Assembly: GCA_044892505.1 (NCBI GenBank)
Contig: CM097882.1
Coordinates: 247,752,001-247,816,000, forward strand
Reading direction: 5' to 3'
Source of the DNA: Schmidtea nova
Lineage: Eukaryota
DNA length: 64,000 bases
The notes under the pieces were generated by a model. It saw nothing but the letters and a program-made list of their open reading frames with translations, did no database searches and was not told where the DNA came from. Below, piece by piece: positions 42,978-63,804 of this stretch. The translations under genes were made by a program, and so were the position numbers. The first letter of the stretch is position 1, and each line of letters starts with the position of its first letter.

Positions 42978-43068
42978 TCTACAACAATATTTACATCAAT
43001 TTCCCCATATTTTTGATTTTTTCTGGTTCTTTATTTACACGTATTTACACAATTTTTCCGCTTATTCA

Positions 43069-43544: not shown

Positions 43545-46500
43545 CTATACAACTATCACTGGTTTTCCTTCGTACAGTTCCTCGTCCTCGATCTGTACCC
43601 ACATTTCTTCGTGTTTTGATCGTCTTTTCAGCTCTTCTCGTACTTCTTTTGGTAGTTTTATGTTGTAATTCGTGACCTTTACGTCCGGCCATTTTACTGC
43701 TATGGTCTTATTTCTCATGCCATATCTCCAACATACTATCATGATCGTTATCAGTGGGATACACGCTATGAATACTCCCATGCTGATTAAACCCATTATT
43801 GTTTTCCCGATGTTCATTCTTGGAGTTTCACTTTGGTTTATCATCACGCCATATTGACCTTTCCATTCCGCTTCCCATTGTTCATATTGTTGTTGTCTCC
43901 GTCTGACTTCTTCAATCACTTTCTCTGGTTCCCATCTTTCTTGGCGGTTTGGTATTGTTTCTTCCTTCTCGTTTTGTTCTCTCTTCTGACTCAATTCTCG
44001 GAATTCTAACTTTCTGATTCTCCTCTTTATCGGCGTGTAATAGGTTTCGCACCTTTCTTGTGGATTTCCTTGTGTATCCACTTCTTCAATTGCACACACT
44101 TCGTATTCTGCGTTTGTTTTCAACTTCCTCATTTCTACCTCAATAATTTCTCCTTTGTCATCTGCGGTCTTTTGACATCTTCGTGGAGACTTTCCCATAC
44201 TGTTTGGCATTAATGTCCAACAGATTTCTAGGACCTTTTTATGGATCTTCCATATTATCAACGTTGTTGATTCCGATTCGTGTTCTATTGTCGTGCTTTC
44301 TGTGGTTGCCTGTTGAGTTCCTTGACTGTTTGTTGTCGTGGTTCTTTTTGACTTTCTTTTCCTCTGTCGACTTCCTCCCATTTCAATCGTTCTTGTTCCG
44401 TTAATTTGCTCTGGCGTCTTGTACAGTTTGCACTCCAGGCTTCTTAGTATTATTTCTCTTATTCTTCGAATTACGCAAATTTCGTAGGTTTGTCCGACTT
44501 CGAATCCATTTAGTTGAAACGGGATTCCTCGTTCTCTCGTTCTACATTGCGGTATTATGTTGTTGGTCGATACTCCGATGTATTTTCTCCAACACATCCC
44601 AATTGTTCTCCGACCAATGTTTTTTATCTCCACGGTTACTACTTCATTCGCAATCGTTTCTTGATCTTGTTTCTTTCTTTTTGGGAACTCAATTATCTCC
44701 TTTGCTTGGAACACTTTACACTCGCTTGTTCCTGGTCTGTTTCCGTTTGCTGCTTTTCCCATGAGACATAGTTCACATTTTCTATCTGTCTCCATTTCGG
44801 TTATCTCAATTTCTTCATTTGTCTCTGCTTCTCGACTTTCTCTTGTTTCGCTGATTCCAATTACTTCATTGTTTCGTCCCCAACATCTTCCATTCGTTGT
44901 TCGTTGGTCTTGGATATTTACTAACGTCATCACGCTGATATCTATGTCCTCCATGATTCTCTTAATGAGAATTAATATTAATGCTACACATATCAATTCT
45001 GGTTGGAATGTTAATTTGCCCGCTGAATTTTTGGTTATTCTTTCTTTCTCTGTTCGGTTTCTGATTCCCTCTTCTGCTTCCGTTTGATTCTTCCCTTTCT
45101 CTGGTTCTACTTCTGTTCTTCTCGTTGTCTCTTCGCTTCTTTTCTCAATCCATTTCTGTATTTTCAGCGCTTCTGTTGCTTTATATAATTGACATGCAGT
45201 TACTTGAGGTGCTTTTGGTTCTCCTCTCTGCTTTATTGCGCATATTATGTATGACTTTTCTTTCTCCAACCCTTTGATTTGGATGACGTCTCGCTTCAAA
45301 TCTGACAATATACACTTCAGCGTATCGTTTTTCTTCAGATTTTCTTTCCAGCATATTCTTTCGTATACTTCATTTCCTCTGATTATTTCCAGCGTGACGT
45401 ATTGTTTCTTGGCTTCTCCTTGTCCGATGATTGTTATCAATATCGCTATACACAACATTTCTGGTCTCAAAAGTAGACTTCCTGTTCGTTTTCCATGGTT
45501 CGCACATTCGTCTTTTGTTCCACTGTTTTCTCGTTCTTCTGCTTCTCTTTTCTTGTCGTTTCTCGTTGGCTTTGGTTCTTCTTGTCTTTCTTTTTCATCA
45601 TCTTCCGTTCTTTTGTTGTCATTGTCTTCTTTGTTCTTTTCGTTGTTACTTTTGTCGTCGAAATCTCTGTAACCACCCCCTGGTCCTTTGAAAATGTCGT
45701 CCTCGACATTAATTTCTTTAATCAATCTTTCATACGCTTGAACCGCGAGTGTGCTAGACTCGAATTCTCGTATTTCCATCTCTTTGGATGGTTCTATGTT
45801 TTCTAGTCTACTTTGCTTGATTGTTTCTTTGGCTTTTGCCCATTCATTCACATATTTTCTGAACAAGTCTTTCCATCTTCCCATTCGTTCCTGTTCCTTT
45901 GGGTTGTTCGTAAGTTTCAAATCTCTTCTCTTCAAGAATTCTTCTACTATCTCTGGCTTTTTGTGTCTTAATAACGCGCTTCTGATACACCAATTCTGGT
46001 TCTGTTCCATATGATCATTGATCTTGAACGCTGGTTCCTTAGTGACCGGATTCACCCATGTTAGTAATGCTCTTGTTTTCTCTATGTCGTGTATCATTAC
46101 TGTTAGACTGAAATTCTTTACGTTATTTGCCAGATATTCGATGTCATCCTGTTTCTTGATGGACTTTATGAACTTGATCATCTCGAAGTTGTTCCACTGT
46201 ATTGCGATATCTATGATGGAATTGTTCTTTCCATTTTTCCCTTCGATTTTTGCTCCTGCTTCGTATAATTCATTTAGCACTTTCAACTTCGTCTTCTTTC
46301 TTGCTGCGATTATCATGATTGTATCTCCGTTATCGTCAACCGTATTCATGTCTGCTTCGCACTTGACCATTGCTTTCGTTATTTCTAGCACTTCGTTTTC
46401 TTTCTTTCGGCGTAATGCCCAGTGTATCGGCAATCTCCCATCCTTTGATAATAGGAATGCCACTGGCATTTGATTTTTGATCGTTTCTATGTCGATCTCG

Positions 46501-49500
46501 TTATAATCCCCTTGTGCATATCTGTGCACTCTCTCTGTAATTGCTCCTAGTATTTCCAACGAGTTTTTATTCTCTTTGAATTCCGATAATTTTTCCTGTG
46601 CTTTTGCTACGATTGCATCTAGTCTCTCTTGATATTCCGCTTTTGCATTGAACAACACTGCTTTGCTTCTTATTCGTGTTTGCATCTGTTTCATCCGTTG
46701 GTCTTGATACACTGCTTGTCTGAAGAACTGTCCATACTTCAATGTTTCCACTAACTCTTTATATCGCTTGCTTATTTCTTTGTGCTGCTTTTGGATGTCA
46801 TAGAAATGTTCAAAGCTCATATCCGGATTCCATTGTTTATCACACCATTTCTTGATTAATCCGAATAATTCTTTCTTTCTGTCTTCCAGCTTGTATTCTC
46901 TTGGGTTCTCGCTAACCCGTAGCGTATCTCTCGCTATCAACACTGCAAGTGTTTTTGGATCGTATGTTACCTCTACTAGATGTTTCAGTAACGCATTTTC
47001 TCCCCTTATGAACACTTCATTACAATCGACGACCCATGAATCTCTTTCTGGTCGTTTCCACTTTAACAGTATTCTCCAGGTTTTACTGTTTTTTACCCTG
47101 ATTGCTTGTTTCATGATCGATCCTCTAGTTAGTTCATCGATTTCCCACGTGGCATTTTCCGTAATATACTTTAGTATTCGGTGATTCGCTCTATCGATTG
47201 CATGATTCAAGAACGTTCGTCCCTCTTTATCTTTTGTCATCCAATTCGATCTGGTGTTTCCGAATAGCTTGACTATTTCATCGTTTCTTCCATGAATTGT
47301 CATCATCATAAGTGGAGTAATTCCTTCCCAATTCACTTTGTCAATTTCTCCTCCACCTTCGAGTATCATCTCCACAATCTCTTTCACTTTTTCGTTTCCA
47401 CCGTGCTTGATTGCATTGTGCAACGCGGTGTTGCCGTCTTTATCTTGTAGATTCAATGTTTGAGGGATTACCTCTAGCAGCGTTCTTGTTATTGGATGTG
47501 CTGTTCTATCCTTCGCATACTCCATTACATTCTTTCGAACCTCCGTCAGTATATTGAAATCGAGCCACCATTTCCATTCTGGTATAATTTCTCTGGTTTT
47601 CTTTGCCAGTTCTTTGATATCTATTGCTTCTCTTCGATTGTCTTCTAGACTTGTTTGCGGCTTTTGTTGTACTCGCAACATATTGATTCTCGCCGTCTGT
47701 GATCTTGTCATCACCCGTTTTTCCGGTAATAGAGTTGCTGTCTTTGGTACTTTTCTGCATCGACATGCATTCACGTATATTGGTCTTACCAATGGATTGT
47801 TCACCAATCGTACTCGCACATTATTTTCGTTTACTGTTGTTATTTCGTATGGCCCTTTGCCTGGTCGTTGGAGTTTCTTGACTGTACCGGGTATTATCTC
47901 TGGTGTCTCGATTATCACCCAATCTCCAACTTTTAAATCAGGTGCTTTCACATTCTTTTTCTGATCATGTAGATCCTTGTAACTCTCTTGATAGAACTTG
48001 ATGTTTAGTTCCGCCGTTTTCCAGATTTCTTGCATTCTTTCTTTGAACTTTGTAACGTAATCGTCAACCTCCATGTACTGTGATAATGGTGGTTGGTATT
48101 CTAAATCGATCGGTAAGTTGCAATCTCTTCCGTACATTAGTTGGAATGGACTTAGCTTTGTTGCCGCATGTATTGACATTCTATATGCCATTAAACACAA
48201 GTTGATATACTCGTCCCAGTCAGTCTGATGTTTGCTGACGTAATTCGACAACATGCGTATCAATGTTCCATTGAACCTTTCTGTTTGTCCGTTCGTTTGT
48301 GGATGGTATGGGGATGTTCGTAATTTCGCAATTCGGAAGTAGTTCGTAACTTCGTCTAATATTTCACTCATGAAATTTGTTCCTTGATCCGTTAGGATTT
48401 TCTTTGGTGTTCCGTATCTGCAGCATATCTCTTCCACCAATATTCTTGCGACTGTTTTCGCTTTTTGATCTGGTATTGCGAACGCTTCTGGGAACTTTGT
48501 TAGATAGTCCGTGACTACTAATATATACTGATTTCCCTTTAAACTTTCCGGTAATGGTCCAACTACATCCATTGCTATCGTCGCCATAGGTTCTGCAGGT
48601 ATTGGCATTGGTTTCAGGGGTGTTTTCCACTTTGTTCCGACGTTCTTTCTTGTCGCACAGGTCAAGCAGTTCTTTATCCATTCTTTCACATCATCTTCCA
48701 TGGTTGGCCAAAAATACTTTTGTCTCAGTCTTCCGCTTGTCTTTTTTGCAGACATATGTCCGCCTAATTTTCCGTCATGATATTGAGTCATGATTTCTTT
48801 TCGTCTATTCGCAGGTAAGCACATTAATCTTCGTTCTCCATCTTGTATCAATAACCATCCTTTTTCCATCACATATCTATGTTGATATTTCTGCATATGT
48901 TCGCGCAACGTTTGGTTCTTGCCGAATATTTCTGTTTCCCTTTCTTTCAAATACTTGCTGATCATTCCCAACTCCTCGTCTTCGAGTTGATCTTTCCTTA
49001 GTTCGTTGAAATCCAAATCTTCCGCTATTAATGCACATATTTTCAGGGCGTTTAGGTTCACCAATTCTGGGAATGTAAATCTTGACATACAATCCGCATT
49101 TGCATTTGCTTTTCCTGCTTTAAACTTTATGAATGGCGAGTATTCTTGCAACTGCATTGCCCAACGCATCAATCTACTTGATGATTCTTTATGTTGACCT
49201 AACCATACTAGCGGTTGATGATCCGTCGTGATATATATTTCATGACCCCACAATAGGTACTTGAAATGCTTGATTGCCAATATTATCGCATAGGCTTCTC
49301 TTTCCGTGACTGAGTAATTCTTTTCATGCTTCCTGAACGTTCGACTGTAATATCCAATTACTCTTTCCTTGCCTTCTTCGTCAAATTGGCCTAGTACTGC
49401 TCCTGCTGCATATCCACTTGCGTCTGTTGCCAACAGAAATGGCTTCTTAAAGTCTGGATGGACCAATATTGGTGCTGTAATCAGCTTATCTCGTAATGTT

Positions 49501-52500
49501 TCAAATGCTGCTTGTTGCTCTTCTCCCCACACAAACGACACGTCTTGTCTTACCAATTCTTGCATTGGCTTTGATATTCCTGCATAATCCTTGATAAACT
49601 TTCGATAATATCCACACAATCCCAAAAATTCTTGTATTTGAGTCACTGTCTTTGGTGGTGGACATTCTTTGACTTTTTCGATATTCCTTGGATCTGGTTC
49701 TTTTCCTTTTGCTGATACAATGTGACCTAAGAATGTCACTTTTTCTTTTGCCCAATCGCACTTTGACGGCTTTAATTTCAGTTTCCACTGTCTCAATTTC
49801 ACGAACACATTTCTGATGTCTTGCAAGTGACCTTCGAATGTTGCGGAGTAGATCAATAGATCGTCGATATACACCATGCATTGTTTTATGCCATGTGTTA
49901 CGAAATTCATGCATCTCTGGAATGATGCTGGCGCGTTTGTTAACCCAAACGGCATTTTCTTGAATTGGTACAGATCTCGTCCGATTGTAAATGCTGTCTT
50001 CTCTTTATCCTCGTCTTTCATTTTGATCTGCCAATATCCGCTTTTTAAATCTAATGACGTGAAATAAGCTGCTCCTTGTAACGTCAATAACATTTCGTTT
50101 ATGTCTGGCAGTGGGTACGTATCTCTTTTCGTAACGGCATTTAATCGTCTGTAATCGATACAGAATCTTTGAGTTCCATCCTTCTTTTTCACCATCACCA
50201 CCGGGAATTGCCAGGGTGAGCAACTAGGTTCGATGACCTCTGCATCTAACATCTTTTGTACCTCTTCTTCTGCCACTGCTTTTTGAGCTTCTGCCAGTTT
50301 ATATGGTCGTAATGCGATTGGCGTTTCGTCCGTCAACGGTATCGTGTGTAATGTTACGTCACATGTTCCTAAATCCAGATCTGATGCTGCGAATATATCT
50401 TTATATTCCATCAACAGTTTCTGTAACTGTTCTTTTTGTCGTTCGTCTAACAACACACTGTCGATTTTCCATGGTAATTCGTCTTTGCTTTTCTCGTTCT
50501 TGTCGGGTATTTCGATTTCGGACATGGGTGTCAATTTACCCAATCTCTCATTCTCGTATATTATCTTGTCCTCTTCGTCGAAGTTCACCAGATTTATCGG
50601 TATTTCTCCTTCTTGGTTTATCGTGACCAATTCTCTTGCCATTGGTAATTCTTTCTTTGCTTCGAACTTCTTACTCGGTTCGAATATCATATCTCCCTTT
50701 ATTGTTGAATCGATCTTGACATAGCACATCATTTCGTGCCTCGCTGGCACTACTATTTGTTCCGCACTTGCCACTTTAACTTTCATTCTGCAGATTTTTC
50801 CTGTTCTATCTTTTAGCTTCATTGCTCCTAGATCAATTACGATTTCCTTGAACAGGTCTGGCATCAGGTCAGTTCCAATAATACATGGTACACTCAGCGA
50901 TGGTATTACAGCGATGTACGTGTTGATCTCTGCACCTCGATGCTTAATTTTTACAAACCATCTTCCGGCTACTTCTACTGTCTCTTGACTGCACGCGATT
51001 ACATGTACGTTCGTCTTCTCGATTTCTCCTTGATTTTTCTCTGGTATATAATTAATGTCGATTGCCGAAATATTCGCGCCTGTATCGATCATTGCTTCGA
51101 TTTCTCTTCCATTTATTTCTACGGTTGTTGTTAAAATCGGTCCCATATTTGTGGACATAACCGCTATCGTGTGCGTGTCTTCTAACGAGTTTACACTTCC
51201 ACCTCGTTTTACTTTGCATCCTTCTGGAATTATCGGGTATATACTTGTCATCGGCATCATCTGCATCATATTTGGCTTCGCTTTGTATATCGGTTCGTTA
51301 TACATTGACTGAGGTGGAGCGCTGTATCTCCAATTCTCAACTGCACTCTTTTCGTTATACTGTGGAATCTGGTTTATATTCGCTTGTCCTCCTTGATCGT
51401 CATCGTCATCATCATCATTGCTTGAATCATCTTGTGTTCGATATCCTCTCACTCTTTCCCATAATCCTTTCCTTTCTTTCTTTAATTGTCTTCTTGCTTG
51501 TTCGTCTTGCATTATCTTTTTGAATTTCCTTCCAACATCTTCATTTGTTCCTCTCATTTTTGCAAGTATCTTCAACAACCTCTTTATTCGATGTATGTCT
51601 TTTGAGTGTCCGTGTAACACCATCGTTTTCGCAAGGAATGGTAAAAATCCTACTACCATTTTCCAATTCACTTTCTTTTCTCTCTTGTAGATGTCGAAAC
51701 ACGCTAACATTTGCGTTATTATCACTCTGACGATTTGTATTATCAGTATAACTCCCAGTATTCCAGCCATCATTTGTCCAAATATCAGGAATCTTCCCCA
51801 CATTGCCTTCATCATATTTTCTGTGGCTTTCTTGAAATGTGCCGGTGACAACAGCAGTTCGTAATTCGGTCCTTCTCGATAATTCGTTCCTCCCGTTATT
51901 GTTACGATATTTGACAGTAGTGCTTCTCTTCTTGCCGGGAATAATATATTCTGCCTTGCTGCTTCTAAATCTTTTGGACTATAGATTCCGTTGTTTGAGA
52001 CATCTACGTCGCTGAACTGTCTATCTTTTGACAACTGCATTAGCTCAAATTCTCTTGGTGCTAATACTTCGGTTCTTCCTGGGAACATAACCCATTTGCC
52101 ATCTGGCTTCTGATAAAGCGGTCCGTACGCATTACTACAGTTGAACGGATTTGGTTCAAAACTTGGTGGATTGATGATTCTCGTCACCGGTTGAACATAT
52201 CGTACTTTTCCTTTATAATCGATTTCTAGTTCGTTTGTACATTGTCCAGGTTTCAACTGCGTTGTTGCTGCTAGCGATGCGTGTGTCTTTTCGCAAATGT
52301 ATACATACATTGCCTCTCCAACCACTCTTCCGAAATGTCCTTCTCTCAGTGGTAATAATGGCATCGCGCTATCTGGATTCGTAATCGCTACGGCCAACTT
52401 TGTCTTTAATATTTCCCGATTCAGTATACAATCGTTGTTTATTAGATCATAGTACACTTTTTGCAATGAGGCTTGTCCTCTATGGAATAAGAAATCCATT

Positions 52501-55500
52501 TTATTATTCACATACAAGTGTAGCTTGATATCCATTGTGTCGATCTTGGGTTTCGCATTCGGTACTTCTTGCTTTGACACATATATTCCTGGATAGTTTG
52601 TTTCGTATACTGTTGTACTGCACTTAAGGGTTGCTTTCCCTTTTATGAATCTCATGCCCACATCCTGATTTGTGGTTATCAACACTGTTGGTGTGGTTCT
52701 CATCTCTATCCGTTTTTCTCTATGATCGGGTTTCAATTGTCTTTTATTCTCTAAAGCTTCTTTGAGATGTTTTGCTCTAGCTTTGTCGTCATCGTCTTCT
52801 TCTTGGAACGTTTTGCCTTGAATTTCGTCAAACTTTGCTCCTTGTAGCAGTTGTAATTGACATTCGTTCACTTTTGGTTTATACACCAAAGTTGACATTC
52901 CCGTTTGACACATGCTTCTGTCAATTTTACACATGGATAACGTTTTCATTTCTCCTGTTGTTGGTTCGAAGAATGCTTCGTAGCTTTTCAGTTCGACTAT
53001 ATACGTATCCATTACCACTAAGTTGGTTGCAGGTACTCCAAATATTGGGTAGGTTTCTCCTTGACAATATCCTTCTCCTCCCGTAATTCGTCCTGCTACG
53101 TAATATGTCTGCTGTAACATCATTCCTGGCTTTCCTCTTATCTTGATTTTATCTCTCGTTGTCACTTCTCCATGTTTAAACAATGCTTCGCAGTCTTCTC
53201 CCTGTAACACGATTGGTTCTCTTTCTGTTCCTGGCATGACAATTGCTGAGTAATGTCCTCTACCGCAATAGAATGCGAATCTCGTCTTCTGTACCTTGCA
53301 TTCATTCACCATTGTCTTTATTAGTTCTGCCTCTTGATATACGTGGTACCATTGTTCCTTTTTTATCTCTTTTAACTCTACGGGAGTTGCATCTTTGCAC
53401 TGCTCCGTACCTCTCAATGAGTACTTCTCTCCCAACTTCATTTGATCACAGTCAAATACTTCAAATGTTGTTACACCTTCTGTGCTTAACAACCAAACTA
53501 GCATCATCATGATTATCGAGTTTAGATTCAACGTCGATCTTCCGTTTCCTTGCATCGTTTGTCTATTCTCCATTTCTCTCAATACTCCTTCGAGTTTCTT
53601 TCTCATCACGTTAGAACCTTCTTTTGTCTGGTTCTCTTTTATGAACTTTTCCCATCCTCCTTTTCTGAGGATATATGGTTCAATTTCCTTCTCGATAATC
53701 ATCGCCGTATTTTTAATATGTCTTCCCATCGGACTTGACTTCGGACTTCCTCGGCTTAGCGTTAGCAAATTGTATATCGTATACGAGATTGCTACTAGAT
53801 ATTTGCTATCCGTCTCTGCTCCGTTAAGTAGCCTTTTTATCAACATCGTGGTTCCTTGCCAATCTAGATGATTCGATTTTGTTTTTGCCTTTATCAATTC
53901 TGGCATAATCGGTGCTATTGCATTGTGTAGCATTCTTGCCTTTGTACTGGGTTCGTTTATCCGCCACAAATTCTTTAATTCTGGGTCAATTATCGCTAAC
54001 ACATCCATTATCGTTTTGGTGAGCCATTCTTCTCCTTGACAAACTTGATTCTCCTCTTTTCCTCTGATCTCTGCGATTTTATCCAATTTCTTCAAGCAAA
54101 TCTCCCATTGCTCTTGTCTCCTTTCTTCCCTTGTCTTTGGGATTGCTGTTGCTGGATCTATCTTTGGTCTTCCTCTTGGTCGTTTTTCCATTCCAGTTCC
54201 TGTTTCTACAAATCTCGATGTTCTTCCGGTTTCTTCCGTAACATCTCTTCCTTCGTTTGCTCGTTGTTCTAACCATCTTTCCATTTCTTGAGTAAACTGT
54301 GGTTGTTCTTGCTCGTCTTCCGAATCGCTTACCATTTCTATGACTACCTCCTGTTCCACTCCTTGATCGTCGATTTCTGCTGGTGACGTTATTGGCATCT
54401 CTATTATTCTGTCGAAAATATTCGCCGTTGGTTTTTGAGTCAACTTCGTTAGTTCTTCTATCGCCTCATCACTATCTGTTAGTATCTCATCCACGTCATA
54501 CGCTTCTGGTGGTGTTCTCTCTCTCGTTTTTATTGGTGTTGTCCTTGCTTGTCCCGAACTTGTTCCTGGGGTCATTGTTGACTTCATCGGACTTGGTGTA
54601 CTCATGCTCCCTTTCGTTTTCTTTTCCTCTTTAAACTTCAGTGGTTGACCCACTATCTGTGCCACTGTTAGCGTATTCATTAGATCCAATTGCACTGGTG
54701 TCAGCCAGATTTCCAAATTATTATCCAACGATCGTCCTTGATGTTGCAGGTGGAATGGTAGTTCGTACATCAGTTTCTCTTTAACACTCTTCACTTTTTC
54801 TGTTAGCATCACCCAAAACTCTTCTTTTCTCTGATTCGGATACATTATCCTCAAATGTATTTTCTGTGGCGTTTCCTCCGCAAACTCTTTGTTTCTCCAC
54901 TTTTTTATTACATCGTCTAGTTGCTCTGGACACCACTCGTTAACTCTCTTGTATTCTGCTATCGCTTTAGCTACTTTTCTCAAGTTTGTCATGTCTTCTC
55001 CATTTGAGATTATGAATTGTGCTAAGCCTTTTATTGTTTGTCTTTTTCCCCGAGTATTCCCTCTCAACAGTTCGATCAATTCACTCGTTTTCTGTTTCTC
55101 CAATTCTGCCCATATTACTGCAGTTTCTGGTCCGTCTAAGTCCGTTGGTAATAACTTCCTTGTTACCATACATATCCGTTTCGTATTCCGTTCATATCTG
55201 TCTTCTCCTTCCGGATCTTCTTCATACACGCCTCTTTTCACTTTCCAACATTTCTCTTTGTTATCCCATTGTTTCTCTACTGGCGTCAATCGTCGTCTGT
55301 TAAGATCCACTTCTCCTAATATTGTCTCCCATTCTGGCTTCATCTGCCAGTTCCGATAGATTTCTACTATTTGTCTCAACTTACGCATAACGTCCTCTTG
55401 TCGTTTCTTTCTCCTTTCTTCATCCCTTGGTGTTGCTCTTTGCACATCATCCATTCTGATGACATGTATTGTCTGATAATTATCCCATATGCCGATTTTG

Positions 55501-58412
55501 TACGCTCGTCTTTCGTCACGTTCGTTCAGTAGATGTTCCTTGTATTTTATCGCAATGTCATCCTCGAATTCATCTTCCCGTTCTCGTTGTAATATCGTCT
55601 CATTGATGACATCTACTATTTCTCCCACTTTACTATCTGGTATTACCTCAATTTGTTTTGTCTCTTCGTTTGGTAATCTCACGGTAATCTTCAGATCTGA
55701 TACCTCTCCTCGTTTAAACATTTCTTTTCCCATCTTGGCAATTAGCTTGTCCGTCTTGAAATTTGAATGTCTCGTTTGACTTGTATCTCGTATGTTCTCG
55801 ATACACTGTTTCAAATTCTCATACTCGTTTTTCGTCAATTCCTTTCGATGTTTCTTGATTTGTTGGATGATCTGTTCTATCATCGTATTCAAATTCTCCG
55901 TCAAGATTCTTTCCTTTGCCTCTACCAACTGAGGTTTTATTCTCATCTCATAACACGTATTTGCTTCTTTGACGATTCCCTGTAAGTTCTCTTCCTTCTT
56001 GGTGTTGCATATTGATAACGTCGTTATTTCTCCTGGCCATATGCCTGTGTCTATCATATGCGTTCCTTTTCTCACCAATCCGTTTCCCGAATATATGAAC
56101 TTGTCTTTGTACGAGCTTCCCAATCTGTCCTCAACCCATCGATAAATTCCGTCTGTCATTGGGTTCCTTATCCAGATTCTCGGTGAGCACTCGTTTATCC
56201 ATATGTGTATTACGTATTCGTTCAGTGGTTCTTTCAATAACTTCTCTATGAATTCTTGTATTACCCTCACTTCTCTTTCTTGTAACCACTCTTTATACTT
56301 CGTCTGCCATACTGCTCGTATAAACTTTCGGTATCGTTTCGTGTCGATAAACTCCTCGTTATGGATTACTTCCAACGCATTATCCATCAGCTTCTGGATT
56401 TCATCTTCCTTTACTAATGCTGTTTCTATTGTCTTGACCACTTCCATCTTTTTATCCTCGTTTTCCGGTTCCTTTAGCATGTCTCCTGCCAGACTGCTAA
56501 CTTCGCTGTCGTCTTCTTCCTCTGACAACTCTTGTCTTGGGTGTCTCAGCATCCCAATATGTGCGGTTGGTCTCGCTTCGTTTTTGCTAACTTCTTGTAT
56601 TAGTTCATTCTCGTTTCCTGTTACTTCAGCTTTTCCCATTCTTTTCTCCAACTCATCTATTTCTTCCAACCGTCTTCGTCTTATTTTTCCTTTGAATATT
56701 CGACTGATCCGAGTTTGATGTTTCACTGGTGGTGGGATTTTCTCCGGTTCCACCTCTCTGATGATCATCACGTTTATTTTCGTCTCCGTTACTCCCATAT
56801 CTTCCCATATATCAGTCATCTTTAACTTCACTTCCGGTAAATCCTCTGTTTGTAGGAATGCTTCTCTGGGCAGTTTCGTCACTCCCGGAATCATCTCATT
56901 TACTTTATTGAACAATCTTCCCACTTCTTCTTTTACATCGTATTTGAATCGCCACACGTGATCATTCGGCATGATCACCAACATCCCTCTTTGTTTGATT
57001 CTTACTTCCTCTTCTTGATTCGCTTCTTTTTCTATTTCTTCAACTTTTTGATCCTGCTCTGCGGCTTCTACTTCCTGATTCACTTCTCCTTGTTTCTGCT
57101 CTTCGTTTCTTTTCTCTTTAATTTCTAACTCGTCTGACTCATCTTGCTGCTTCTCTTCCATCGTTGCTCGCATCATGTTGATCCTTGGATTTCCCTTTTT
57201 TAACTGTTGTAATCGTTGTTGCCTGACTTGTTCTTCTTCTCGTCGTACTCTAGCCCATTCTTGATTATGTTTCTGTTGACTCTCTCTGTTTTCTCTTTCG
57301 GCCTCAGCTTCTATTAACTGGATCATGTTTATCTTTGGTTGAGCAGCTTGTTGGCTTCCCTTTGCCATGCTTTCGATTATCTCGTGTAATCTGGATACCT
57401 CCTGTCTCAACTTAGCTTCTTTCATACTAGCTTCGTTTGCACTGCTGTTTGGGTTGTTCCGTTGTTGGCCTTGATTCCCATAGCTTGGTCGATTCCCGTA
57501 ATTCGGTCTATTTCCACTGTTTGACCAACTTCTCTGTTGATTACAGTCTCTTGACATGTGTCCGGTTTTTCCACATGTGTAACACGTTTTCCCATAACAT
57601 CGATTTTCTGAGTGACCTTTTTGTCCACACAGTTTACAGGCTACATTCTGAAAACAGTCTTGTTGCCAATGTCCGTTTTTCCCACACGTCTGACATTGCC
57701 TATTCTGCCTGTCATTGTAACTATTTCCTCCATTCGTGTTCACCGTGATATATCCGTTATTCTTCCTCGCTGGCGGTTCTTTGAACAATCTCTGCGAATG
57801 GGGAATACTTTGATTCATGTTTCTTTTTCCTTGTTCTTCATCTTCTGTCGTTTTTCCCATTACCGCCGTAATTCTCATGTCGTTCATTTCCATATGCAAT
57901 TCGAATAGGTTGGCTGCTTCCAACGCTTCATCTACTGTTTTACATCCTTTGCATCCCACTTGTGCTCTGATGTCAGGTCTCCTGAGACCTCGTACGAATA
58001 ACGCTGTCATCAATTCTTCGTCTACTGGGCTTCCTCTATTGAATGCCAGTTTCGCCAACTTCCTTAATTCGCTTGCGTACACCGCATTTGACTCGTTTCT
58101 CCTCTGTTTTCTTGCTGAGAACTCATCGAACGCTTCATTCAGCACCTTGTTTATCCCAAACGTCTGTTGGAAGAACTCCTTGATTGCTTCCCACGTTCTG
58201 GGTGGATTACTTCCCGATCTCTTTTCAATATACAGATCCAATGCGCTATCTTTTAAGTATAGCGGGATTCGATTTGCTAACGTTTCTGCACTCCATCCGC
58301 ATATATCTACGAATATGCCAAATTCCTTCAGAAACGTATCCAATCTACTGGCGTCTCCATTGAATGGTTCGCCCTTGAATTTTTCTCTTAGATCCTCTCT
58401 GTGATCACTCAT
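43545..58412 (-). CDS. 4955-aa polyprotein: Gag, Ubl-like, Bcl-2-like, class III glycoprotein, PR, RT, RNase H, IN, ankyrins, FN3-like repeats, TM
   Basis: Single open frame. Gag MHR-like QRRNESNAVYASELRKL; 3 CCHC knuckles (~57690-57545); DTG (51086); YIDD (~49870); TDAS...EREAYA; HHCC, D-D-E and GPY integrase; TALH/TPL ankyrins. Confidence 0.97.
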   Translation of the reverse strand: MSDHREDLREKFKGEPFNGDASRLDTFLKEFGIFVDICGWSAETLANRIPLYLKDSALDLYIEKRSGSNPPRTWEAIKEFFQQTFGINKVLNEAFDEFSARKQRRNESNAVYASELRKLAKLAFNRGSPVDEELMTALFVRGLRRPDIRAQVGCKGCKTVDEALEAANLFELHMEMNDMRITAVMGKTTEDEEQGKRNMNQSIPHSQRLFKEPPARKNNGYITVNTNGGNSYNDRQNRQCQTCGKNGHWQQDCFQNVACKLCGQKGHSENRCYGKTCYTCGKTGHMSRDCNQQRSWSNSGNRPNYGNRPSYGNQGQQRNNPNSSANEASMKEAKLRQEVSRLHEIIESMAKGSQQAAQPKINMIQLIEAEAERENRESQQKHNQEWARVRREEEQVRQQRLQQLKKGNPRINMMRATMEEKQQDESDELEIKEKRNEEQKQGEVNQEVEAAEQDQKVEEIEKEANQEEEVRIKQRGMLVIMPNDHVWRFKYDVKEEVGRLFNKVNEMIPGVTKLPREAFLQTEDLPEVKLKMTDIWEDMGVTETKINVMIIREVEPEKIPPPVKHQTRISRIFKGKIRRRRLEEIDELEKRMGKAEVTGNENELIQEVSKNEARPTAHIGMLRHPRQELSEEEDDSEVSSLAGDMLKEPENEDKKMEVVKTIETALVKEDEIQKLMDNALEVIHNEEFIDTKRYRKFIRAVWQTKYKEWLQEREVRVIQEFIEKLLKEPLNEYVIHIWINECSPRIWIRNPMTDGIYRWVEDRLGSSYKDKFIYSGNGLVRKGTHMIDTGIWPGEITTLSICNTKKEENLQGIVKEANTCYEMRIKPQLVEAKERILTENLNTMIEQIIQQIKKHRKELTKNEYENLKQCIENIRDTSQTRHSNFKTDKLIAKMGKEMFKRGEVSDLKITVRLPNEETKQIEVIPDSKVGEIVDVINETILQREREDEFEDDIAIKYKEHLLNERDERRAYKIGIWDNYQTIHVIRMDDVQRATPRDEERRKKRQEDVMRKLRQIVEIYRNWQMKPEWETILGEVDLNRRRLTPVEKQWDNKEKCWKVKRGVYEEDPEGEDRYERNTKRICMVTRKLLPTDLDGPETAVIWAELEKQKTSELIELLRGNTRGKRQTIKGLAQFIISNGEDMTNLRKVAKAIAEYKRVNEWCPEQLDDVIKKWRNKEFAEETPQKIHLRIMYPNQRKEEFWVMLTEKVKSVKEKLMYELPFHLQHQGRSLDNNLEIWLTPVQLDLMNTLTVAQIVGQPLKFKEEKKTKGSMSTPSPMKSTMTPGTSSGQARTTPIKTRERTPPEAYDVDEILTDSDEAIEELTKLTQKPTANIFDRIIEMPITSPAEIDDQGVEQEVVIEMVSDSEDEQEQPQFTQEMERWLEQRANEGRDVTEETGRTSRFVETGTGMEKRPRGRPKIDPATAIPKTREERRQEQWEICLKKLDKIAEIRGKEENQVCQGEEWLTKTIMDVLAIIDPELKNLWRINEPSTKARMLHNAIAPIMPELIKAKTKSNHLDWQGTTMLIKRLLNGAETDSKYLVAISYTIYNLLTLSRGSPKSSPMGRHIKNTAMIIEKEIEPYILRKGGWEKFIKENQTKEGSNVMRKKLEGVLREMENRQTMQGNGRSTLNLNSIIMMMLVWLLSTEGVTTFEVFDCDQMKLGEKYSLRGTEQCKDATPVELKEIKKEQWYHVYQEAELIKTMVNECKVQKTRFAFYCGRGHYSAIVMPGTEREPIVLQGEDCEALFKHGEVTTRDKIKIRGKPGMMLQQTYYVAGRITGGEGYCQGETYPIFGVPATNLVVMDTYIVELKSYEAFFEPTTGEMKTLSMCKIDRSMCQTGMSTLVYKPKVNECQLQLLQGAKFDEIQGKTFQEEDDDDKARAKHLKEALENKRQLKPDHREKRIEMRTTPTVLITTNQDVGMRFIKGKATLKCSTTVYETNYPGIYVSKQEVPNAKPKIDTMDIKLHLYVNNKMDFLFHRGQASLQKVYYDLINNDCILNREILKTKLAVAITNPDSAMPLLPLREGHFGRVVGEAMYVYICEKTHASLAATTQLKPGQCTNELEIDYKGKVRYVQPVTRIINPPSFEPNPFNCSNAYGPLYQKPDGKWVMFPGRTEVLAPREFELMQLSKDRQFSDVDVSNNGIYSPKDLEAARQNILFPARREALLSNIVTITGGTNYREGPNYELLLSPAHFKKATENMMKAMWGRFLIFGQMMAGILGVILIIQIVRVIITQMLACFDIYKREKKVNWKMVVGFLPFLAKTMVLHGHSKDIHRIKRLLKILAKMRGTNEDVGRKFKKIMQDEQARRQLKKERKGLWERVRGYRTQDDSSNDDDDDDDQGGQANINQIPQYNEKSAVENWRYSAPPQSMYNEPIYKAKPNMMQMMPMTSIYPIIPEGCKVKRGGSVNSLEDTHTIAVMSTNMGPILTTTVEINGREIEAMIDTGANISAIDINYIPEKNQGEIEKTNVHVIACSQETVEVAGRWFVKIKHRGAEINTYIAVIPSLSVPCIIGTDLMPDLFKEIVIDLGAMKLKDRTGKICRMKVKVASAEQIVVPARHEMMCYVKIDSTIKGDMIFEPSKKFEAKKELPMARELVTINQEGEIPINLVNFDEEDKIIYENERLGKLTPMSEIEIPDKNEKSKDELPWKIDSVLLDERQKEQLQKLLMEYKDIFAASDLDLGTCDVTLHTIPLTDETPIALRPYKLAEAQKAVAEEEVQKMLDAEVIEPSCSPWQFPVVMVKKKDGTQRFCIDYRRLNAVTKRDTYPLPDINEMLLTLQGAAYFTSLDLKSGYWQIKMKDEDKEKTAFTIGRDLYQFKKMPFGLTNAPASFQRCMNFVTHGIKQCMVYIDDLLIYSATFEGHLQDIRNVFVKLRQWKLKLKPSKCDWAKEKVTFLGHIVSAKGKEPDPRNIEKVKECPPPKTVTQIQEFLGLCGYYRKFIKDYAGISKPMQELVRQDVSFVWGEEQQAAFETLRDKLITAPILVHPDFKKPFLLATDASGYAAGAVLGQFDEEGKERVIGYYSRTFRKHEKNYSVTEREAYAIILAIKHFKYLLWGHEIYITTDHQPLVWLGQHKESSSRLMRWAMQLQEYSPFIKFKAGKANANADCMSRFTFPELVNLNALKICALIAEDLDFNELRKDQLEDEELGMISKYLKERETEIFGKNQTLREHMQKYQHRYVMEKGWLLIQDGERRLMCLPANRRKEIMTQYHDGKLGGHMSAKKTSGRLRQKYFWPTMEDDVKEWIKNCLTCATRKNVGTKWKTPLKPMPIPAEPMATIAMDVVGPLPESLKGNQYILVVTDYLTKFPEAFAIPDQKAKTVARILVEEICCRYGTPKKILTDQGTNFMSEILDEVTNYFRIAKLRTSPYHPQTNGQTERFNGTLIRMLSNYVSKHQTDWDEYINLCLMAYRMSIHAATKLSPFQLMYGRDCNLPIDLEYQPPLSQYMEVDDYVTKFKERMQEIWKTAELNIKFYQESYKDLHDQKKNVKAPDLKVGDWVIIETPEIIPGTVKKLQRPGKGPYEITTVNENNVRVRLVNNPLVRPIYVNACRCRKVPKTATLLPEKRVMTRSQTARINMLRVQQKPQTSLEDNRREAIDIKELAKKTREIIPEWKWWLDFNILTEVRKNVMEYAKDRTAHPITRTLLEVIPQTLNLQDKDGNTALHNAIKHGGNEKVKEIVEMILEGGGEIDKVNWEGITPLMMMTIHGRNDEIVKLFGNTRSNWMTKDKEGRTFLNHAIDRANHRILKYITENATWEIDELTRGSIMKQAIRVKNSKTWRILLKWKRPERDSWVVDCNEVFIRGENALLKHLVEVTYDPKTLAVLIARDTLRVSENPREYKLEDRKKELFGLIKKWCDKQWNPDMSFEHFYDIQKQHKEISKRYKELVETLKYGQFFRQAVYQDQRMKQMQTRIRSKAVLFNAKAEYQERLDAIVAKAQEKLSEFKENKNSLEILGAITERVHRYAQGDYNEIDIETIKNQMPVAFLLSKDGRLPIHWALRRKKENEVLEITKAMVKCEADMNTVDDNGDTIMIIAARKKTKLKVLNELYEAGAKIEGKNGKNNSIIDIAIQWNNFEMIKFIKSIKKQDDIEYLANNVKNFSLTVMIHDIEKTRALLTWVNPVTKEPAFKINDHMEQNQNWCIRSALLRHKKPEIVEEFLKRRDLKLTNNPKEQERMGRWKDLFRKYVNEWAKAKETIKQSRLENIEPSKEMEIREFESSTLAVQAYERLIKEINVEDDIFKGPGGGYRDFDDKSNNEKNKEDNDNKRTEDDEKERQEEPKPTRNDKKREAEERENSGTKDECANHGKRTGSLLLRPEMLCIAILITIIGQGEAKKQYVTLEIIRGNEVYERICWKENLKKNDTLKCILSDLKRDVIQIKGLEKEKSYIICAIKQRGEPKAPQVTACQLYKATEALKIQKWIEKRSEETTRRTEVEPEKGKNQTEAEEGIRNRTEKERITKNSAGKLTFQPELICVALILILIKRIMEDIDISVMTLVNIQDQRTTNGRCWGRNNEVIGISETRESREAETNEEIEITEMETDRKCELCLMGKAANGNRPGTSECKVFQAKEIIEFPKRKKQDQETIANEVVTVEIKNIGRRTIGMCWRKYIGVSTNNIIPQCRTRERGIPFQLNGFEVGQTYEICVIRRIREIILRSLECKLYKTPEQINGTRTIEMGGSRQRKRKSKRTTTTNSQGTQQATTESTTIEHESESTTLIIWKIHKKVLEICWTLMPNSMGKSPRRCQKTADDKGEIIEVEMRKLKTNAEYEVCAIEEVDTQGNPQERCETYYTPIKRRIRKLEFRELSQKREQNEKEETIPNRQERWEPEKVIEEVRRRQQQYEQWEAEWKGQYGVMINQSETPRMNIGKTIMGLISMGVFIACIPLITIMIVCWRYGMRNKTIAVKWPDVKVTNYNIKLPKEVREELKRRSKHEEMWVQIEDEELYEGKPVIVV

Positions 58413-59279
58413 CCCGATTCCACTATCTTGGAATACTGTACTAGTTTTCTTTGCTTCTAGTTCACCACTTGTTTCTGGATTCGACTCTTCTTCTTCACTA
58501 CTCTCTGTTTCGTTATCTCTTGATTCGCTTCTTGTTCTGTTTTCCCTGACTAGTTCACTGTCTATCGTCTCTACTTCGTTTCGTACTTCTAGATCTTCTG
58601 GGGTTTCTTCTTGGTTCTCTTTATTACTCGAATTATCGCTGATCTCTACTTGTTTGTTCTTTTGTTGCTTAGGCTTGTTACCTGTTCTTGTCCTTTTTGC
58701 TGCTTTTCTTTCTGCTTCCGTTAAGATTGGTATTATACCTGATCTTGTTTCTCGTCCCTCAATTTTGTCTATTCCTCAACTTCTTATATTCTCAATTGAT
58801 TTTCTACTCCGCTTTTGCTTTGCTTCTTCTATGCTTTGTTTCCTTTGATTGCTCTGACTGCTAGATTGCTTTGAATTGCTTGATTGATTTGTTTCCTTAA
58901 AACAAATAATCACTTACACGATACGTCCCCGTTATCGTGTTTCTCGTCCCTCTCACGGGTGTAGTCATAATTCATGAAGATCCCCATTTTTCCCATTTCC
59001 CTTGATTTTAAGTCTATTTAAATTATCTATGCAGTCGCATCAATTATCTATTCTTTATCAAATACACCAATTACTTTTCCCCAGTTTCCCAATTACTTTG
59101 TCGCTCAGCGCTCTTATTATCCCCTTTACTTTTCTCAGGCTTCTCTGGCTCTGAGTTCAAATTTCCCCTTATCTGTCGACTACTCTGTTTCTCGACTACT
59201 CACTTTATCTCCTATTCACACTACGTTTACTACTTCATTTCAATTCTCATCTCTACTCACCTTTAATTCAACTGACATT

Positions 59280-59760: not shown

Positions 59761-60072
59761 ACTTACTCACTTTACTTTACTACTCCTCTTTGTATGCATA
59801 CTTTAACATCATTAGGCCACATAATCAGCTTTACTCGCATTTATCAATACCCAGGTGCGCACCTTCAACTCTCACATTATTACCTCGGTTTCTTTCAACC
59901 CTTATTCCTCATTATTCGCTATTCATTTTCACTATTCATCATTTATCCTCATTATCATTTATTCATCGCTTATTAATCTTCATTATCCGGATAGTTTTAT
60001 ACTTTATTTAGTCCTCATCTGCCTCACTTCGTCGTCTTTCTCGTGGGCTTTTACTCAATATTTTATTTCGAA

Positions 60073-61388: not shown

Positions 61389-61847
61389 TTACAAGTACAC
61401 TGTTATTTTCTCGGATACGGGAAGGTTGCACATAGGACATCGTTCATTTATTTTACACTCATTACAGAATCGAAAATGCCCACACGGCAACAACATTATC
61501 TGTATTTTGTTTATTTCACAGATATAACACGTCAGATATTGTCTCGTATGTTCTGTTGTTATTCTTATCCACTCATCGTGTTTTGTTGTTAACTGTTGTT
61601 CTAGCCTGTGGCACTCGATATTCATTTCGGGGTTGTTTAATCTTTCTCTGTACCATTTATATCTCGTTGCTGTATCCACTGTGTTCCTATTCTCGCTTAT
61701 GCTCATTATCATTTCGGCTCTCTCTGTGTTGTTTGTCGGTTCGTGGTATCCTTCTACCTCGAGTCGTCTTAACTTCCTCATTATTGTCTCCACTGTTTCG
61801 TTGTTTGTTTCGAAAAACGTTTGCATTTCTTTTATTTTGTTCTCCAT
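61389..61847 (-). CDS. 152-aa protein with C-terminal IAP-type C3HC4 RING finger (putative E3 ligase), upstream of gag
   Basis: CYICEINKIQIMLLPCGHFRFCNECKINERCPMCNLPVSEKITVYL matches the XIAP/cIAP-type RING spacing and terminal hydrophobic tail. Confidence 0.85.
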   Translation of the reverse strand: MENKIKEMQTFFETNNETVETIMRKLRRLEVEGYHEPTNNTERAEMIMSISENRNTVDTATRYKWYRERLNNPEMNIECHRLEQQLTTKHDEWIRITTEHTRQYLTCYICEINKIQIMLLPCGHFRFCNECKINERCPMCNLPVSEKITVYL

Positions 61848-62377
61848 CCCCTGAATGAATTACCGTTAATTTCTGTCGATCTTTATTTATTATTTATTAT
61901 TTCTATTCTATGGTAGCCCTACTGTTCGGTTTTTGTTGTTCTATTTCGCGCCACTGCGTATCCCCCCGTGTTCTTGAATGTCGCCCCGACATGATCATTG
62001 TTAGTTACTCACACTCATACCATTTTCATGCACACTTTTCCGCATACTTTTACCTTACGTCATGCATACTTTTCATCACTTTTCATACTGTTATTCCACA
62101 TACTATTCATCATACTTCATTCGTTCTCATACTTCCATTCCATTATCCTTCATACTTTCATTCTCATGCATACTTTCATCACGTTCATCAATCTCATTAT
62201 TTTACACTCATACTTTTATTTATTATTTTTCAACCCGATTCATTCTTGCTTCAGGACCCTCAAACCCTCTGTCATTCTTTACTTTACTTTTCCTCGCTAA
62301 ATTCAATTCATCCCGGTTCAGGCGCTCTAAACTGTCCGCAGATATCGAATTCACTTTTTCCCACAAAGATCGATTTA

Positions 62378-62401: not shown

Positions 62402-63804
62402 TGCTGGTGTGTTGGTTAGATTGACAACTGAGATCCTTATGATTTTATACGTTAGGGTGATCTCGCCAACATAAAAACATTCCCCCGCTGACACCCATGA
62501 TGTATCCCTAACTACTCATCATGTTGGTACTGTGTCAACGTTGTGAAATGACAAGGCAGGTGAGCAACCTTTCGGCTACTATTCCCTTGTTTATTCACGG
62601 GTCCACCACTACCGATAGAAGGTGTCTGTGGCTTTCTTTCGGTCCCACTTATGCTCTTTACTTTTCTCTAGGGTTGATTCAATGTTATTACATCTGCGGC
62701 TTTAAATGAATCCGAGTTTTAGTTATATTCCATTCTCAGTCATTCCACAAACAAACAAGACAAGTCAAATCATTCATTTTATACATTTATTTGTAGTTCA
62801 ACAATACAGAGGGTCGGATTACATTTAGTAGTTCTTGCTCGGATAGACCACGATGTTACGCTTTACCTATCTCGATTCTCATCGACTTTTGATGTACCAG
62901 CACTCCTTGAAGGTACACCCCCTCGTCAAGATACCTCATGTATATATCTTCCCTTGCGAAATGAGCTTCACCTTGATTTGATTTATGACCATTAACTGTC
63001 ACTCGATACCCTATCATCCTGATGTATAGCGTTTATACTAGACCGCCTCTACTTTGATTTAGTTCATGATCATTAGGTCTTACTCGATACCCTATGTGCA
63101 GTTAACTCCTTCCGCTTTCCAAATATTTAATACACTTATGGTCCCGCCGCATCAGCACCTCACAACCGAAAGATTGTGTTGCGCTGAGAGGCCCCAAGAA
63201 TCCGTCAGGCTGTTAGGCCTCCGGAAAACCTTATGGATTTTAATATGATTAACAATTATAATTATGAGGGTTTAAAAGACTAAAACAACATGAATTACCT
63301 TTTATTCCTTTTCCAAATTCGTTTCACAATGTTCTCGGTAGTCACAAACAGTTCACACTTGGTAAAGATAACATTGTCAAATACTGATTTGACTTCAGTA
63401 TTTATACTGAACCGGTGTTGTTGGTTAGCCAATCAGCATCGAGTATGTGTGTATGTCTGCTTCATTTTTTATGTTGTCGGCTTTTTGCTGCCTAACTTAA
63501 CTCGCCGATTTGTTTGGTTAATCATGCGGTAAGTTTTTCTTAGTCATCAATTTATTTTATTTTATTTTTGTTTTAGGTCTTTGGTGACATCCGCCCACGC
63601 GCTGTCATATTCCAATTTTTCTGCTTCGCATGAGTGAGTTTTGAAGATTTTTGTTGTTTGATTTATATTTTATTTCTTTTAGATGTTGCCGCCTATTTTG
63701 TTACGCTTTGGTGTTGGTAATTTATTTTGTTGTTATTCTGTATTTAATTTATTTTATTGATTGTATATTATTTTCAGATGCTGCTCGATTTGGCTGGCCC
63801 AACA
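62402..63804 (-). repeat. 5' LTR (1403 bp)
   Basis: Direct repeat of 38107-39509; TG...CA termini. Confidence 0.97.

Follow-up and report, generated by a model that had tools for sequence, protein, structure and literature searches.

A predicted class III fusion glycoprotein encoded in frame with gag and pol in a giant Burro-type Ty3/gypsy element of Schmidtea nova

The window, the whole 64,000-nucleotide stretch of Schmidtea nova DNA that was analysed, holds a 25.7 kb Ty3/gypsy element of the planarian Burro type (Table 1). The target-site duplication TCAA (4 bp) is found on both flanks of the element. ORF1 encodes, in order, capsid, zinc knuckles, a Bcl-2-like domain, a glycoprotein, protease, reverse transcriptase (RT), RNase H and integrase. 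Its first Met is at 58412, leaving 4,955 codons from that point, and the residue range of ~1625-2270 given in an earlier, sequence-only reading of this DNA counts from this Met. The pol region has its best PDB matches with Ty3 (Ty3 Gag-Pol, E 1.9e-90; 2.4e-89), with the next at E 6e-59. The carrier is assigned to Ty3/gypsy by its PR-RT-RH-IN order, Ty3-like RT, LTR ends and target-site duplication. The Ty3-like RT seen in the PDB matches argues against a BEL/Pao (Anakin-type) carrier. Matching to the description in the available excerpt of PMC6431247 places the element as Burro-like, on its size (>20 kb), ~5,000-aa ORF1, BCL2-env-PR order and ankyrin/TRAF/RING cargo. The dUTPase-like domain described for Burro between PR and RT was not detected in ORF1 by Pfam.

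Table 1. Features of the element and of its ORF1 in the window
Feature	Position	Strand	Basis or detail
5' LTR	62402..63804	(-)	1,403 bp, TG...CA, 100% match to 3' LTR
Accessory ORF with terminal RING finger, upstream of gag	61392..61859	(-)	zf-C3HC4_3 E 4.9e-9
ORF1 polyprotein	43545..58775	(-)	5,076 codons stop to stop
Gag capsid region	57876..58412	(-)	Pfam Retrotrans_gag E 3e-6, above cut-off
CCHC zinc knuckles (nucleocapsid)	57540..57710	(-)	zf-CCHC E 1.5e-9
Bcl-2-like domain, aa 1591-1719, BH2-like GGW motif	53619..54005	(-)	relatives' profile
Predicted internal signal peptide, aa 1745-1770, h-region aa 1753-1765	53466..53543	(-)	like free relatives' N-terminal signals in position, hydrophobicity and small residues at -3/-1
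Hydrophobic motif SIIMMMLVWLLS	53519-53484	(-)	
Class III (gB/chuvirus-type) ectodomain, predicted, aa 1771-2325	51801..53465	(-)	family match, fold model
Motif FEVFDC	53465-53448	(-)	
Motif YSL	53423-53415	(-)	
Motif NDCILNREIL	52436-52407	(-)	
Motif GEAMYVYIC	52319-52293	(-)	
Motif CTNELEIDY	52241-52215	(-)	
Motif PVTRI	52190-52176	(-)	
TM block	51800-51717	(-)	
TM helix, aa 2335-2353, membrane-proximal segment ahead	51717..51773	(-)	Kyte-Doolittle
Predicted cytosolic tail and spacer, aa 2354-2540	51156..51716	(-)	
Retropepsin, DTGA at 51086	50856..51128	(-)	RVP E 8.7e-9
RT (YIDD), RNase H, integrase, Ty3/gypsy order	47976..50192	(-)	Pfam
Ankyrin repeats, 3' of integrase	46164..47456	(-)	Ank_2 E 2.9e-19
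C-terminal region, two more signal-like segments and final TM helix	43734..45482	(-)	hydropathy; no notable Pfam match
Accessory TRAF-like ORF (RING, zinc fingers, MATH), within element	41568..42995	(-)	MATH_2 E 2.6e-27
3' LTR	38107..39509	(-)	1,403 bp, same as 5' LTR

The sequence-only reading had placed a glycoprotein in frame between Gag and protease. The single ORF is borne out. However, the glycoprotein does not directly follow Gag, because ~1,340 residues of other domains, the last of them Bcl-2-like, separate the zinc knuckles from the internal signal. The Bcl-2-like segment of the window has no Pfam match of its own, and is matched at E 1.1e-13 by a profile built from the regions of six relatives, two of which score Bcl-2 below cut-off (L061, E 1.1e-4; P0005, E 9.6e-4). 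In 7/17 relatives, a BH2-like motif stands 52-82 residues ahead of the point where the ectodomain begins.

All eight motifs quoted in the sequence-only reading are real, and occur in order and in a single frame of one stop-free minus-strand ORF. The ectodomain, 555 residues long, has 14 cysteines and a 48-residue core helix (aa 2085-2132), and the segment is matched by Pfam PF24664, Monjiviricetes_fusion (E 1.3e-73, 248.5 bits vs a cut-off of 27). HMMER found 940 homologs, and a word-index search scored none of 7,993 candidates. A PDB search with the single sequence of the segment gave two matches, both chance, and every match in an ESM Atlas search was below 0.9, a lead only. The ectodomain holds one N-glycosylation sequon, N2212, which makes the label "glycoprotein" thin; other polyproteins have 1-4 and free relatives a median of 4. 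REKR occurs at aa 2019-2022 and is kept in 28/29 sister copies; furin cleavage there is ruled out as a family feature, as REKR is found in 1/13 polyproteins and 5/69 free relatives.

An AlphaFold2 model of the ectodomain (137 sequences; pLDDT 89.4, pTM 0.70) shows a long beta-hairpin fusion domain and a central helix, as in class III. In fold searches, herpesvirus gB accounts for all 37 PDB matches listed (614-730 aligned columns, best E 3.3e-14), and the best matches among viral models are glycoproteins of chu-like and related negative-strand viruses (E 1.6e-34, TM up to 0.70). Sequence identity amounts to 9-13% with gB and 15-20% with the top-scoring viral models. TM-scores to solved postfusion gB are low (0.35-0.45, rmsd 10 A or more), which is attributed to the elongated, hinged monomer in the model. 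A PDB profile search also favours gB, with 38/40 of the matches listed (best E 2.8e-4). A trimer prediction with three copies of ectodomain residues 265-555, in which the alignment was unused and the partner fold uncertain, scored 0.00 and speaks neither for nor against a homotrimer. Since the model matches gB over its full length and chu-like glycoproteins still better, the assignment of the segment as a class III, chuvirus-like fusion protein is supported by modelling, and the resemblance to class III fusogens claimed in the sequence-only reading is upheld by PF24664, the profile matches and the fold searches alike. A class I fusogen like gypsy Env or baculovirus F was suggested by an HHpred match in PMC6431247, where gypsy Env homology with 96.7% probability is reported for this Burro region. 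However, the available excerpt of that paper gives mononegavirus glycoprotein matches too, neither the PDB profile matches nor the fold matches listed here include a class I protein, and the model has the class III hairpin domain and central helix. The class I reading is scarcely credible, being refuted, barring a solved structure to the contrary, by the profile and fold searches, in which the matches listed are mainly herpesvirus gB and chu-like glycoproteins.

Assignment of the signal and TM segments rests on hydropathy and position statistics. Among 153 proteins examined, 95 have the N-terminal [YF]DC motif; a hydrophobic h-region lies ahead of it in 19/19 internal cases and 69/76 N-terminal ones, compared with 296/5,313 random windows. 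Internal cases carry a small residue at -3 in 19/19 and at -1 in 18/19, and the median distance from h-region to motif is 10 residues, against 9 in free relatives. In the window the signal peptidase is predicted to cut after T1770, and Thr is rarer than Ala at -1 (4 vs 10 of the 19 internal cases). This Thr would also suit an uncleaved signal anchor upstream, giving the same fold and the same ER loop in one Gag-Env-Pol chain with two membrane passes until retropepsin cuts. Uncharged runs around the h-region span 19-30 residues in 12/19 internal cases, and a transmembrane domain lies on either side of some gB-type ectodomains, according to the available excerpt of PMC13524379. Nevertheless, the small residues at -3/-1 and the motif distance equal those of the ordinary N-terminal signals of free relatives, and the hydrophobic core in the window is ~12 residues long, below the 19-residue threshold. 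We therefore consider an anchor unlikely.

The TM helix has a 19-residue mean of 2.55, and no other segment from the first Met up to residue 4430 reaches 1.6. Each of 16/16 polyproteins has one such strong helix (mean 1.79-2.55), the next segment being weaker (1.01-1.71). In the window the tail contains a weakly hydrophobic, family-wide segment at 51615-51665 (mean 1.29), and the post-helix segment of the polyproteins is similar to its counterpart in 87 free relatives, where the median is 1.27. There is no support for another TM downstream of the anchor, with polyprotein P0014, which has a second segment >1.6, as an exception. Looping of the ectodomain by an internal signal and a single TM, as the sequence-only reading proposed, is supported by these sequence comparisons, and this comparative support for the topology is what the analysis adds to published knowledge.

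The same order in a single frame is found in two other families of this genome, and protease or RT follows the glycoprotein in 11/22 relatives scanned. In P0059 the glycoprotein follows a DUF5641 domain, and in the tree it lies among free relatives, outside the polyprotein clade. For P0087 the tree label "after integrase" was assumed, and Pfam finds no such domain there. If the single frame were incidental, Env would be translated from a subgenomic RNA that is spliced and has a start of its own, and the Gag-Pol RNA would skip env. In-frame Met codons do lie 33 and 39 residues ahead of the motif in the window. However, a Met 22-45 residues upstream of the motif is seen in 8/17 relatives, about the chance frequency, with no conserved Met before the signal, and the frame is open across both junctions in three families. 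A strict scan of the element interior gave two acceptor-like sites, at 57792 and at 52480, and neither lies immediately ahead of the signal, although the scan is insensitive, as none was found before the accessory ORFs either. No env-skipping joint is present among the 15 joints listed out of 40 (four contig sets from one study, 48000-62400), contigs showing presence only. Expression by splicing is on this evidence highly unlikely.

Between relatives L061 and L062 the ectodomain is 85% identical (dN 0.09, pS 0.72), with 88% identity in capsid and 49-56% in the Bcl-2 and UBL cargo. Within the family, 29 copies show 271 distinct silent changes vs 21 others, an excess that is biased because copies were chosen by protein score. 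None of the 14 cysteines is lost in any of 14/14 polyproteins, and each is present in 42-45 of the 45 free relatives compared. The ectodomain is under strong purifying selection. This bears on whether Env might fold and insert but be no working fusogen, kept instead as a membrane tether that draws Pol to particles under assembly or as a surface decoy against related elements. A tether requires the TM and tail alone, yet the whole 535-residue ectodomain is conserved about as well as capsid, with every cysteine kept. On the other side, the predicted fusion-loop tips (aa ~1835-1845 and ~1895-1903) are not very hydrophobic: loop 1 has flanking aromatics and Arg at its tip, a position taken by Met, Trp or His in most of the relatives shown, and loop 2 is polar throughout the family. 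The polyprotein layout also makes env loss difficult, and the available excerpts of PMC6431247 and PMC13524379 do not report infectivity of such elements. A non-fusogenic role seems unlikely.

Thus, with a probability of about three in four, the segment is the envelope gene, in one frame with gag and pol, of a giant Ty3/gypsy element of Burro type, and its product is predicted to be class III and is likely looped into the ER via an internal signal peptide and a single TM helix. Under this reading, ~1,630 residues of Gag and cargo would be made in the cytosol before the hydrophobic h-region brings the chain to the translocon and it is cut by signal peptidase. The ectodomain would then form up to seven disulfides as it folds in the lumen, and trimerise, while the TM helix stops transfer, so that the tail, protease, RT, RNase H and integrase remain cytosolic. 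Retropepsin would finally release itself and the enzymes from the Env tail; a protease-site-like motif occurs six times in ORF1, none of them at the Env borders. Because the signal-peptidase cut would sever Gag from Pol, Gag would be held on the membrane via the left-behind signal and Pol via the Env tail, and with both membrane-held, particles would assemble on the membrane with Gag, Env and Pol made 1:1:1. The role of Env would most likely be membrane fusion in cell-to-cell spread.

A broader proposal is offered tentatively. These elements might be obligately enveloped retroviruses built like flaviviruses, with host signal peptidase splitting the polyprotein in two, a Gag half anchored in the membrane and a half made of Env and Pol, enzymes reaching particles only via the tail of the fusion spike, and each cycle needing both class III fusion and budding at a membrane. 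For Burro-type elements, the leftover signal might also hold the viral Bcl-2-like domain on the membrane by its C-terminus, putting a death inhibitor at the assembly site.

Gene order and class III fold are both already published for planarian elements, and the catalogue value of the window element is small. What it offers is a clean example, high in copy number and under strong selection, which makes two questions testable: how enzymes are packaged when env splits gag from pol, and whether such elements spread between cells in a stem-cell-based animal. Ordinary retroviruses and LTR elements package via Gag-Pol fusion; if Pol rides on the Env tail, the packaging route would be unlike this.

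The novelty implied by the sequence-only reading does not hold, since in-frame env between gag and pol was published for planarian Burro in 2019 (PMC6431247) and PMC13524379 describes GAG-ENV-POL elements with a gB-type Env from flatworms, nematodes and bryozoans, both papers being cited here from excerpts. Burro1-4/GYPSM1, as described in the former excerpt, share with the window element a ~5,000-aa ORF1, Gag with CCHC knuckles, a BCL2-like domain, an env that sits in frame after BCL2 and before protease, a size of 25-30 kb, and ankyrin, MATH/TRAF and IAP-type cargo. They differ in that the Burro Env is likened to gypsy Env (class I), whereas the window model is class III, and the TRAF gene is inside or upstream of ORF1 in Burro but a separate downstream ORF in the window. 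The excerpt is silent on signal peptide or membrane topology, both of which are predicted here. HSV/gB-type Env errantiviruses of Platyhelminthes group C1a (Smed_errantivirus_1-6, excerpt of PMC13524379) share Ty3/gypsy pol, class III Env, GAG-ENV-POL order and a furin site that is not always conserved; by eye, L061 and L062 are close to Smed_errantivirus_1, and the window element is like Smed_errantivirus_5. The available main text of that paper does not use the terms polyprotein, in-frame, single ORF or fused, nor does it discuss internal Env translocation or the effect of the cut on Gag-Pol. PMC12440569 and PMC12583693 contain nothing on these elements, and PMC13465017 (Hydra) none of the env-related terms looked for. 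The BEL/Pao precedent raised by the sequence-only reading stands for the glycoprotein family, which was also captured by the LTR retroelement Anakin (PMC7642597, excerpt), but not for the carrier: Anakin is a BEL/Pao element of mosquitoes, while the window element is Ty3/gypsy with env before protease. Hookworm Atlas virus (PMC9094657, excerpt), with Env in a stop-free Gag-Pol-Env polyprotein, is an earlier case of a viral fusogen placed inside the ORF of a retroelement; it is, however, a belpaovirus with a class II fold, in contrast to the predicted class III fold and Ty3/gypsy carrier here, and its Env is C-terminal and therefore has no enzyme behind its TM. Herpesvirus gB and chu-like virus G share with the window Env the predicted fold over the whole ectodomain and the sequence signature of the core helix, but they occur as free type I membrane proteins, each with its signal at the N-terminus, whereas the window Env is internal.

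The glycoprotein (Env) segment belongs to a minus-strand LTR element of 25,698 bp, whose features are listed together with others of the window in the table below. It lies within the single reading frame of ORF1, with capsid and zinc knuckles on its N-terminal side and retropepsin, RT, RNase H, integrase and ankyrins on its C-terminal side (Pfam). The sequence-only reading, that a glycoprotein stands in frame between Gag and protease, is thus borne out, and all the motifs it quoted are found in the frame in the same order. The nearest solved structure to the RT is that of Ty3 (PDB comparison), so the carrier is Ty3/gypsy rather than BEL/Pao. Judged by the type of element alone, its host is probably a planarian.

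Features of the LTR element and other parts of the window (ORF1 residues counted stop to stop)
Feature	Position	Strand	Remarks
LTRs, 1,403 bp each	38107-39509 and 62402-63804	-	identical, TG...CA ends, flanking TCAA duplication
ORF1	43545-58775	-	5,076 codons, stop-free
18-base stretch	62378-62395	-	starts TGG, six bases behind 5' LTR; resembles a tRNA-Pro primer-binding site
19-bp tandem array and 85-bp-spaced repeat family	60034-60520 and 59280-59772		5' untranslated region
Accessory ORFs	40317-41504, 43072-43428, 39688-40335	-	inside element; two coiled-coil-like; two short frames that abut, containing signal-like and TM-like segments
ORF1 aa 4432-5014	43734-45482	-	past ankyrins; a pair of similar signal-like segments, repeats with cysteines that by eye resemble fibronectin III, a final TM helix and five sequons
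Env part compared among copies	51576-53558
Env part of raised contig depth	51848-53290
Recurring loose contig end	52477
Long inverted-repeat structure	18200-23200		subrepeats of 152 bp; 99% complementary arms reaching 626 bp; a probable foldback or non-autonomous DNA transposon
644-codon ORF	28517-30451	-	outside element; no Pfam match at E ≤ 1

ORF1 aa 4432-5014 is likely a second surface protein, with two successive signal-like segments that give no simple topology. A signal-like segment behind the integrase is also seen in L061 and L062, loci of two other families of the genome.

The segment matches PF24664 (Monjiviricetes_fusion; 248.5 bits, E 1.3e-73). A search of 1.84 billion representatives (E ≤ 0.001) found 940 relatives, of which the best 150 were used onward; 134 of these were aligned with the ectodomains of the window and of two loci of the same genome, with 16 omitted (long polyproteins, TM-only fragments). 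Against PDB, the profile from this alignment found herpesvirus gB in 38 of the 40 matches listed, three of them at E < 0.001; the similarity lies on the core helix. The AlphaFold2 model from the same alignment (pLDDT 89.4, pTM 0.70) has long beta-hairpins and a 48-residue helix, and all 37 of its listed Foldseek matches in PDB are gB (best E 3.3e-14), with low TM-scores (0.35-0.45 postfusion, 0.19-0.26 prefusion). Among predicted viral structures, chu-like, qin-related and xinmovirus glycoproteins match best (E 1.6e-34 to 1e-29, TM ≤ 0.70). On this predicted model, the class III similarity proposed earlier, and its chuvirus-like character, are upheld by profile and fold searches alike, and Env is supported as a predicted class III fusion protein. 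The profile matches, the model and the Foldseek matches all run counter to a class I fold, which is very improbable. The 14 cysteines of the ectodomain are all conserved in 14/14 polyproteins and in 42-45 of 45 stand-alone ("free") relatives, the latter taken from 76 for this count and the tree. The loops predicted to serve in fusion show only modest hydrophobicity.

Substitution patterns demonstrate constraint on the ectodomain. Between L061 and L062 it is 85% identical (dN 0.09; pS 0.72, silent sites being near-saturated), compared with 88% for capsid, 56% for UBL cargo, 49% for Bcl-2 cargo, 70% for the signal and 36% for the linker preceding it. Among 29 sister copies, 271 distinct changes are silent and 21 are replacements, a count biased by the picking of copies by protein score. 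Env as a non-fusogenic tether is unlikely, as this would leave constraint across the entire ectodomain unexplained. These copies (L002-L030) differ from the window at 61-88 of 1,983 bases, nearly all silently, despite the window's identical LTRs; many lineages seem to have copied themselves in parallel. Of 3,811 candidate matches in the genome, 67 were scored, all 99-100% identical in protein, and 21 of the 67 have stop-free frames of >5,000 codons. The layout recurs in the two other families, there in ORFs of ~3,400 codons.

FastTree groups the 14 polyprotein Envs in a single clade (support 0.98); with a midpoint root and a sample picked by likeness to the query, the tree supports no claim about donor or direction. 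By eye, the Env of locus L065 starts out like L062 and continues like L063, which suggests recombination between subfamilies within env. In each of the four runs, part of the window's Env has a summed contig depth ~2x that of its neighbours, although contig depth cannot rank parts, and a loose contig end recurs there; as a lead, this env may also occur in a related family. Relatives P0001, P0002, P0003, P0004, P0009 and P0014 have aspartyl-protease matches at no fewer than two places (≥2) behind the glycoprotein, suggesting duplicated protease domains.

The top relatives are polyproteins, and a protease or RT lies C-terminal to the glycoprotein in 11/22 scanned; most others are free proteins of ~650 residues. 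Among 153 proteins examined by hydropathy and position counts of our own, an N-terminal [YF]DC motif is present in 95, the other 58 lacking it or starting too near it. Ahead of the motif, a hydrophobic stretch is seen in 19/19 internal and 69/76 N-terminal cases, against 5.6% of random windows (n=5,313), at a similar distance (median 10 and 9). Small residues at -3 and -1, the signal-peptidase signature (von Heijne rule), occur at the predicted cut in 19/19 and 18/19 internal cases. With h-region, distance and -3/-1 pattern shared with free relatives, the internal segment is, by sequence comparison, homologous to an ordinary signal peptide and retains the signature; for the window protein this puts the predicted cut behind T1770. 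An uncleaved anchor would agree with the "two transmembrane domains" class of PMC13524379, and is at odds with the conserved -3/-1 residues, making it rather unlikely.

All 16 polyproteins have one strong helix after the ectodomain. The hydrophobic segment that comes next is weak (1.01-1.71; above 1.6 in 1/16), equal to that of free relatives (median 1.27; above 1.6 in 9/87). With a single membrane pass the chain would come out on the cytosolic side, the place where protease and RT need to act. Comparative statistics thus favour the internal signal and TM loop proposed to place the ectodomain in the ER. Its glycosylation sites are sparse, with one sequon, retained in 29/29 sister copies.

We infer that the internal signal would target the nascent polyprotein to the membrane, signal peptidase would cut behind it, the ectodomain would fold in the lumen, the TM helix would stop transfer and retropepsin would release Pol. 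Internal signals have precedents in the polyproteins of flaviviruses and alphaviruses. As the cut would part Gag from Pol, packaging of Pol as a Gag fusion would be impossible; Pol would be carried on the Env tail, with Gag held at the membrane via the left-behind signal. That the element is obligately enveloped, its enzymes riding on the Env tail, is a tentative reading (probability roughly 0.3). Expression of Env from spliced RNA appears improbable, with no acceptor-like site ahead of the signal in an insensitive scan and no conserved Met before it (8/17 relatives). Seven of 17 relatives carry a BH2-like motif 52-82 residues ahead of the ectodomain motif, and 10/17 have none; in those carrying it, we hypothesize that the left-behind signal could double as a Bcl-2 tail anchor. 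Support for the window's putative Bcl-2-like domain is indirect.

In the spacer that separates the Env TM from the protease, motifs that resemble budding late domains stand at L061 aa ~1793-1800, L062 aa ~1783-1790 and window ORF1 aa ~2513: PTAP in two of the families and hydrophobic-YP in each of the three; such motifs occur in the last 90 residues of 16 and 44 of 87 free relatives.

The observation is confirmed, its interpretation is supported, and the novelty of this Env is low. PMC13524379 links gB-type Env to chuvirus glycoproteins, describes it from elements of Nematoda, Bryozoa and Platyhelminthes with the order GAG-ENV-POL, and lists nine flatworm elements, six from Schmidtea mediterranea; Anakin is treated in PMC7642597. 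In the literature found on such elements there is no statement of a cleavable internal signal or an effect on Gag-Pol packaging; Sacco 2022, Grohme 2018 and Jurka 2007 may hold one. A retroelement precedent for an internal signal is Atlas virus, whose Env is C-terminal (PMC9094657).
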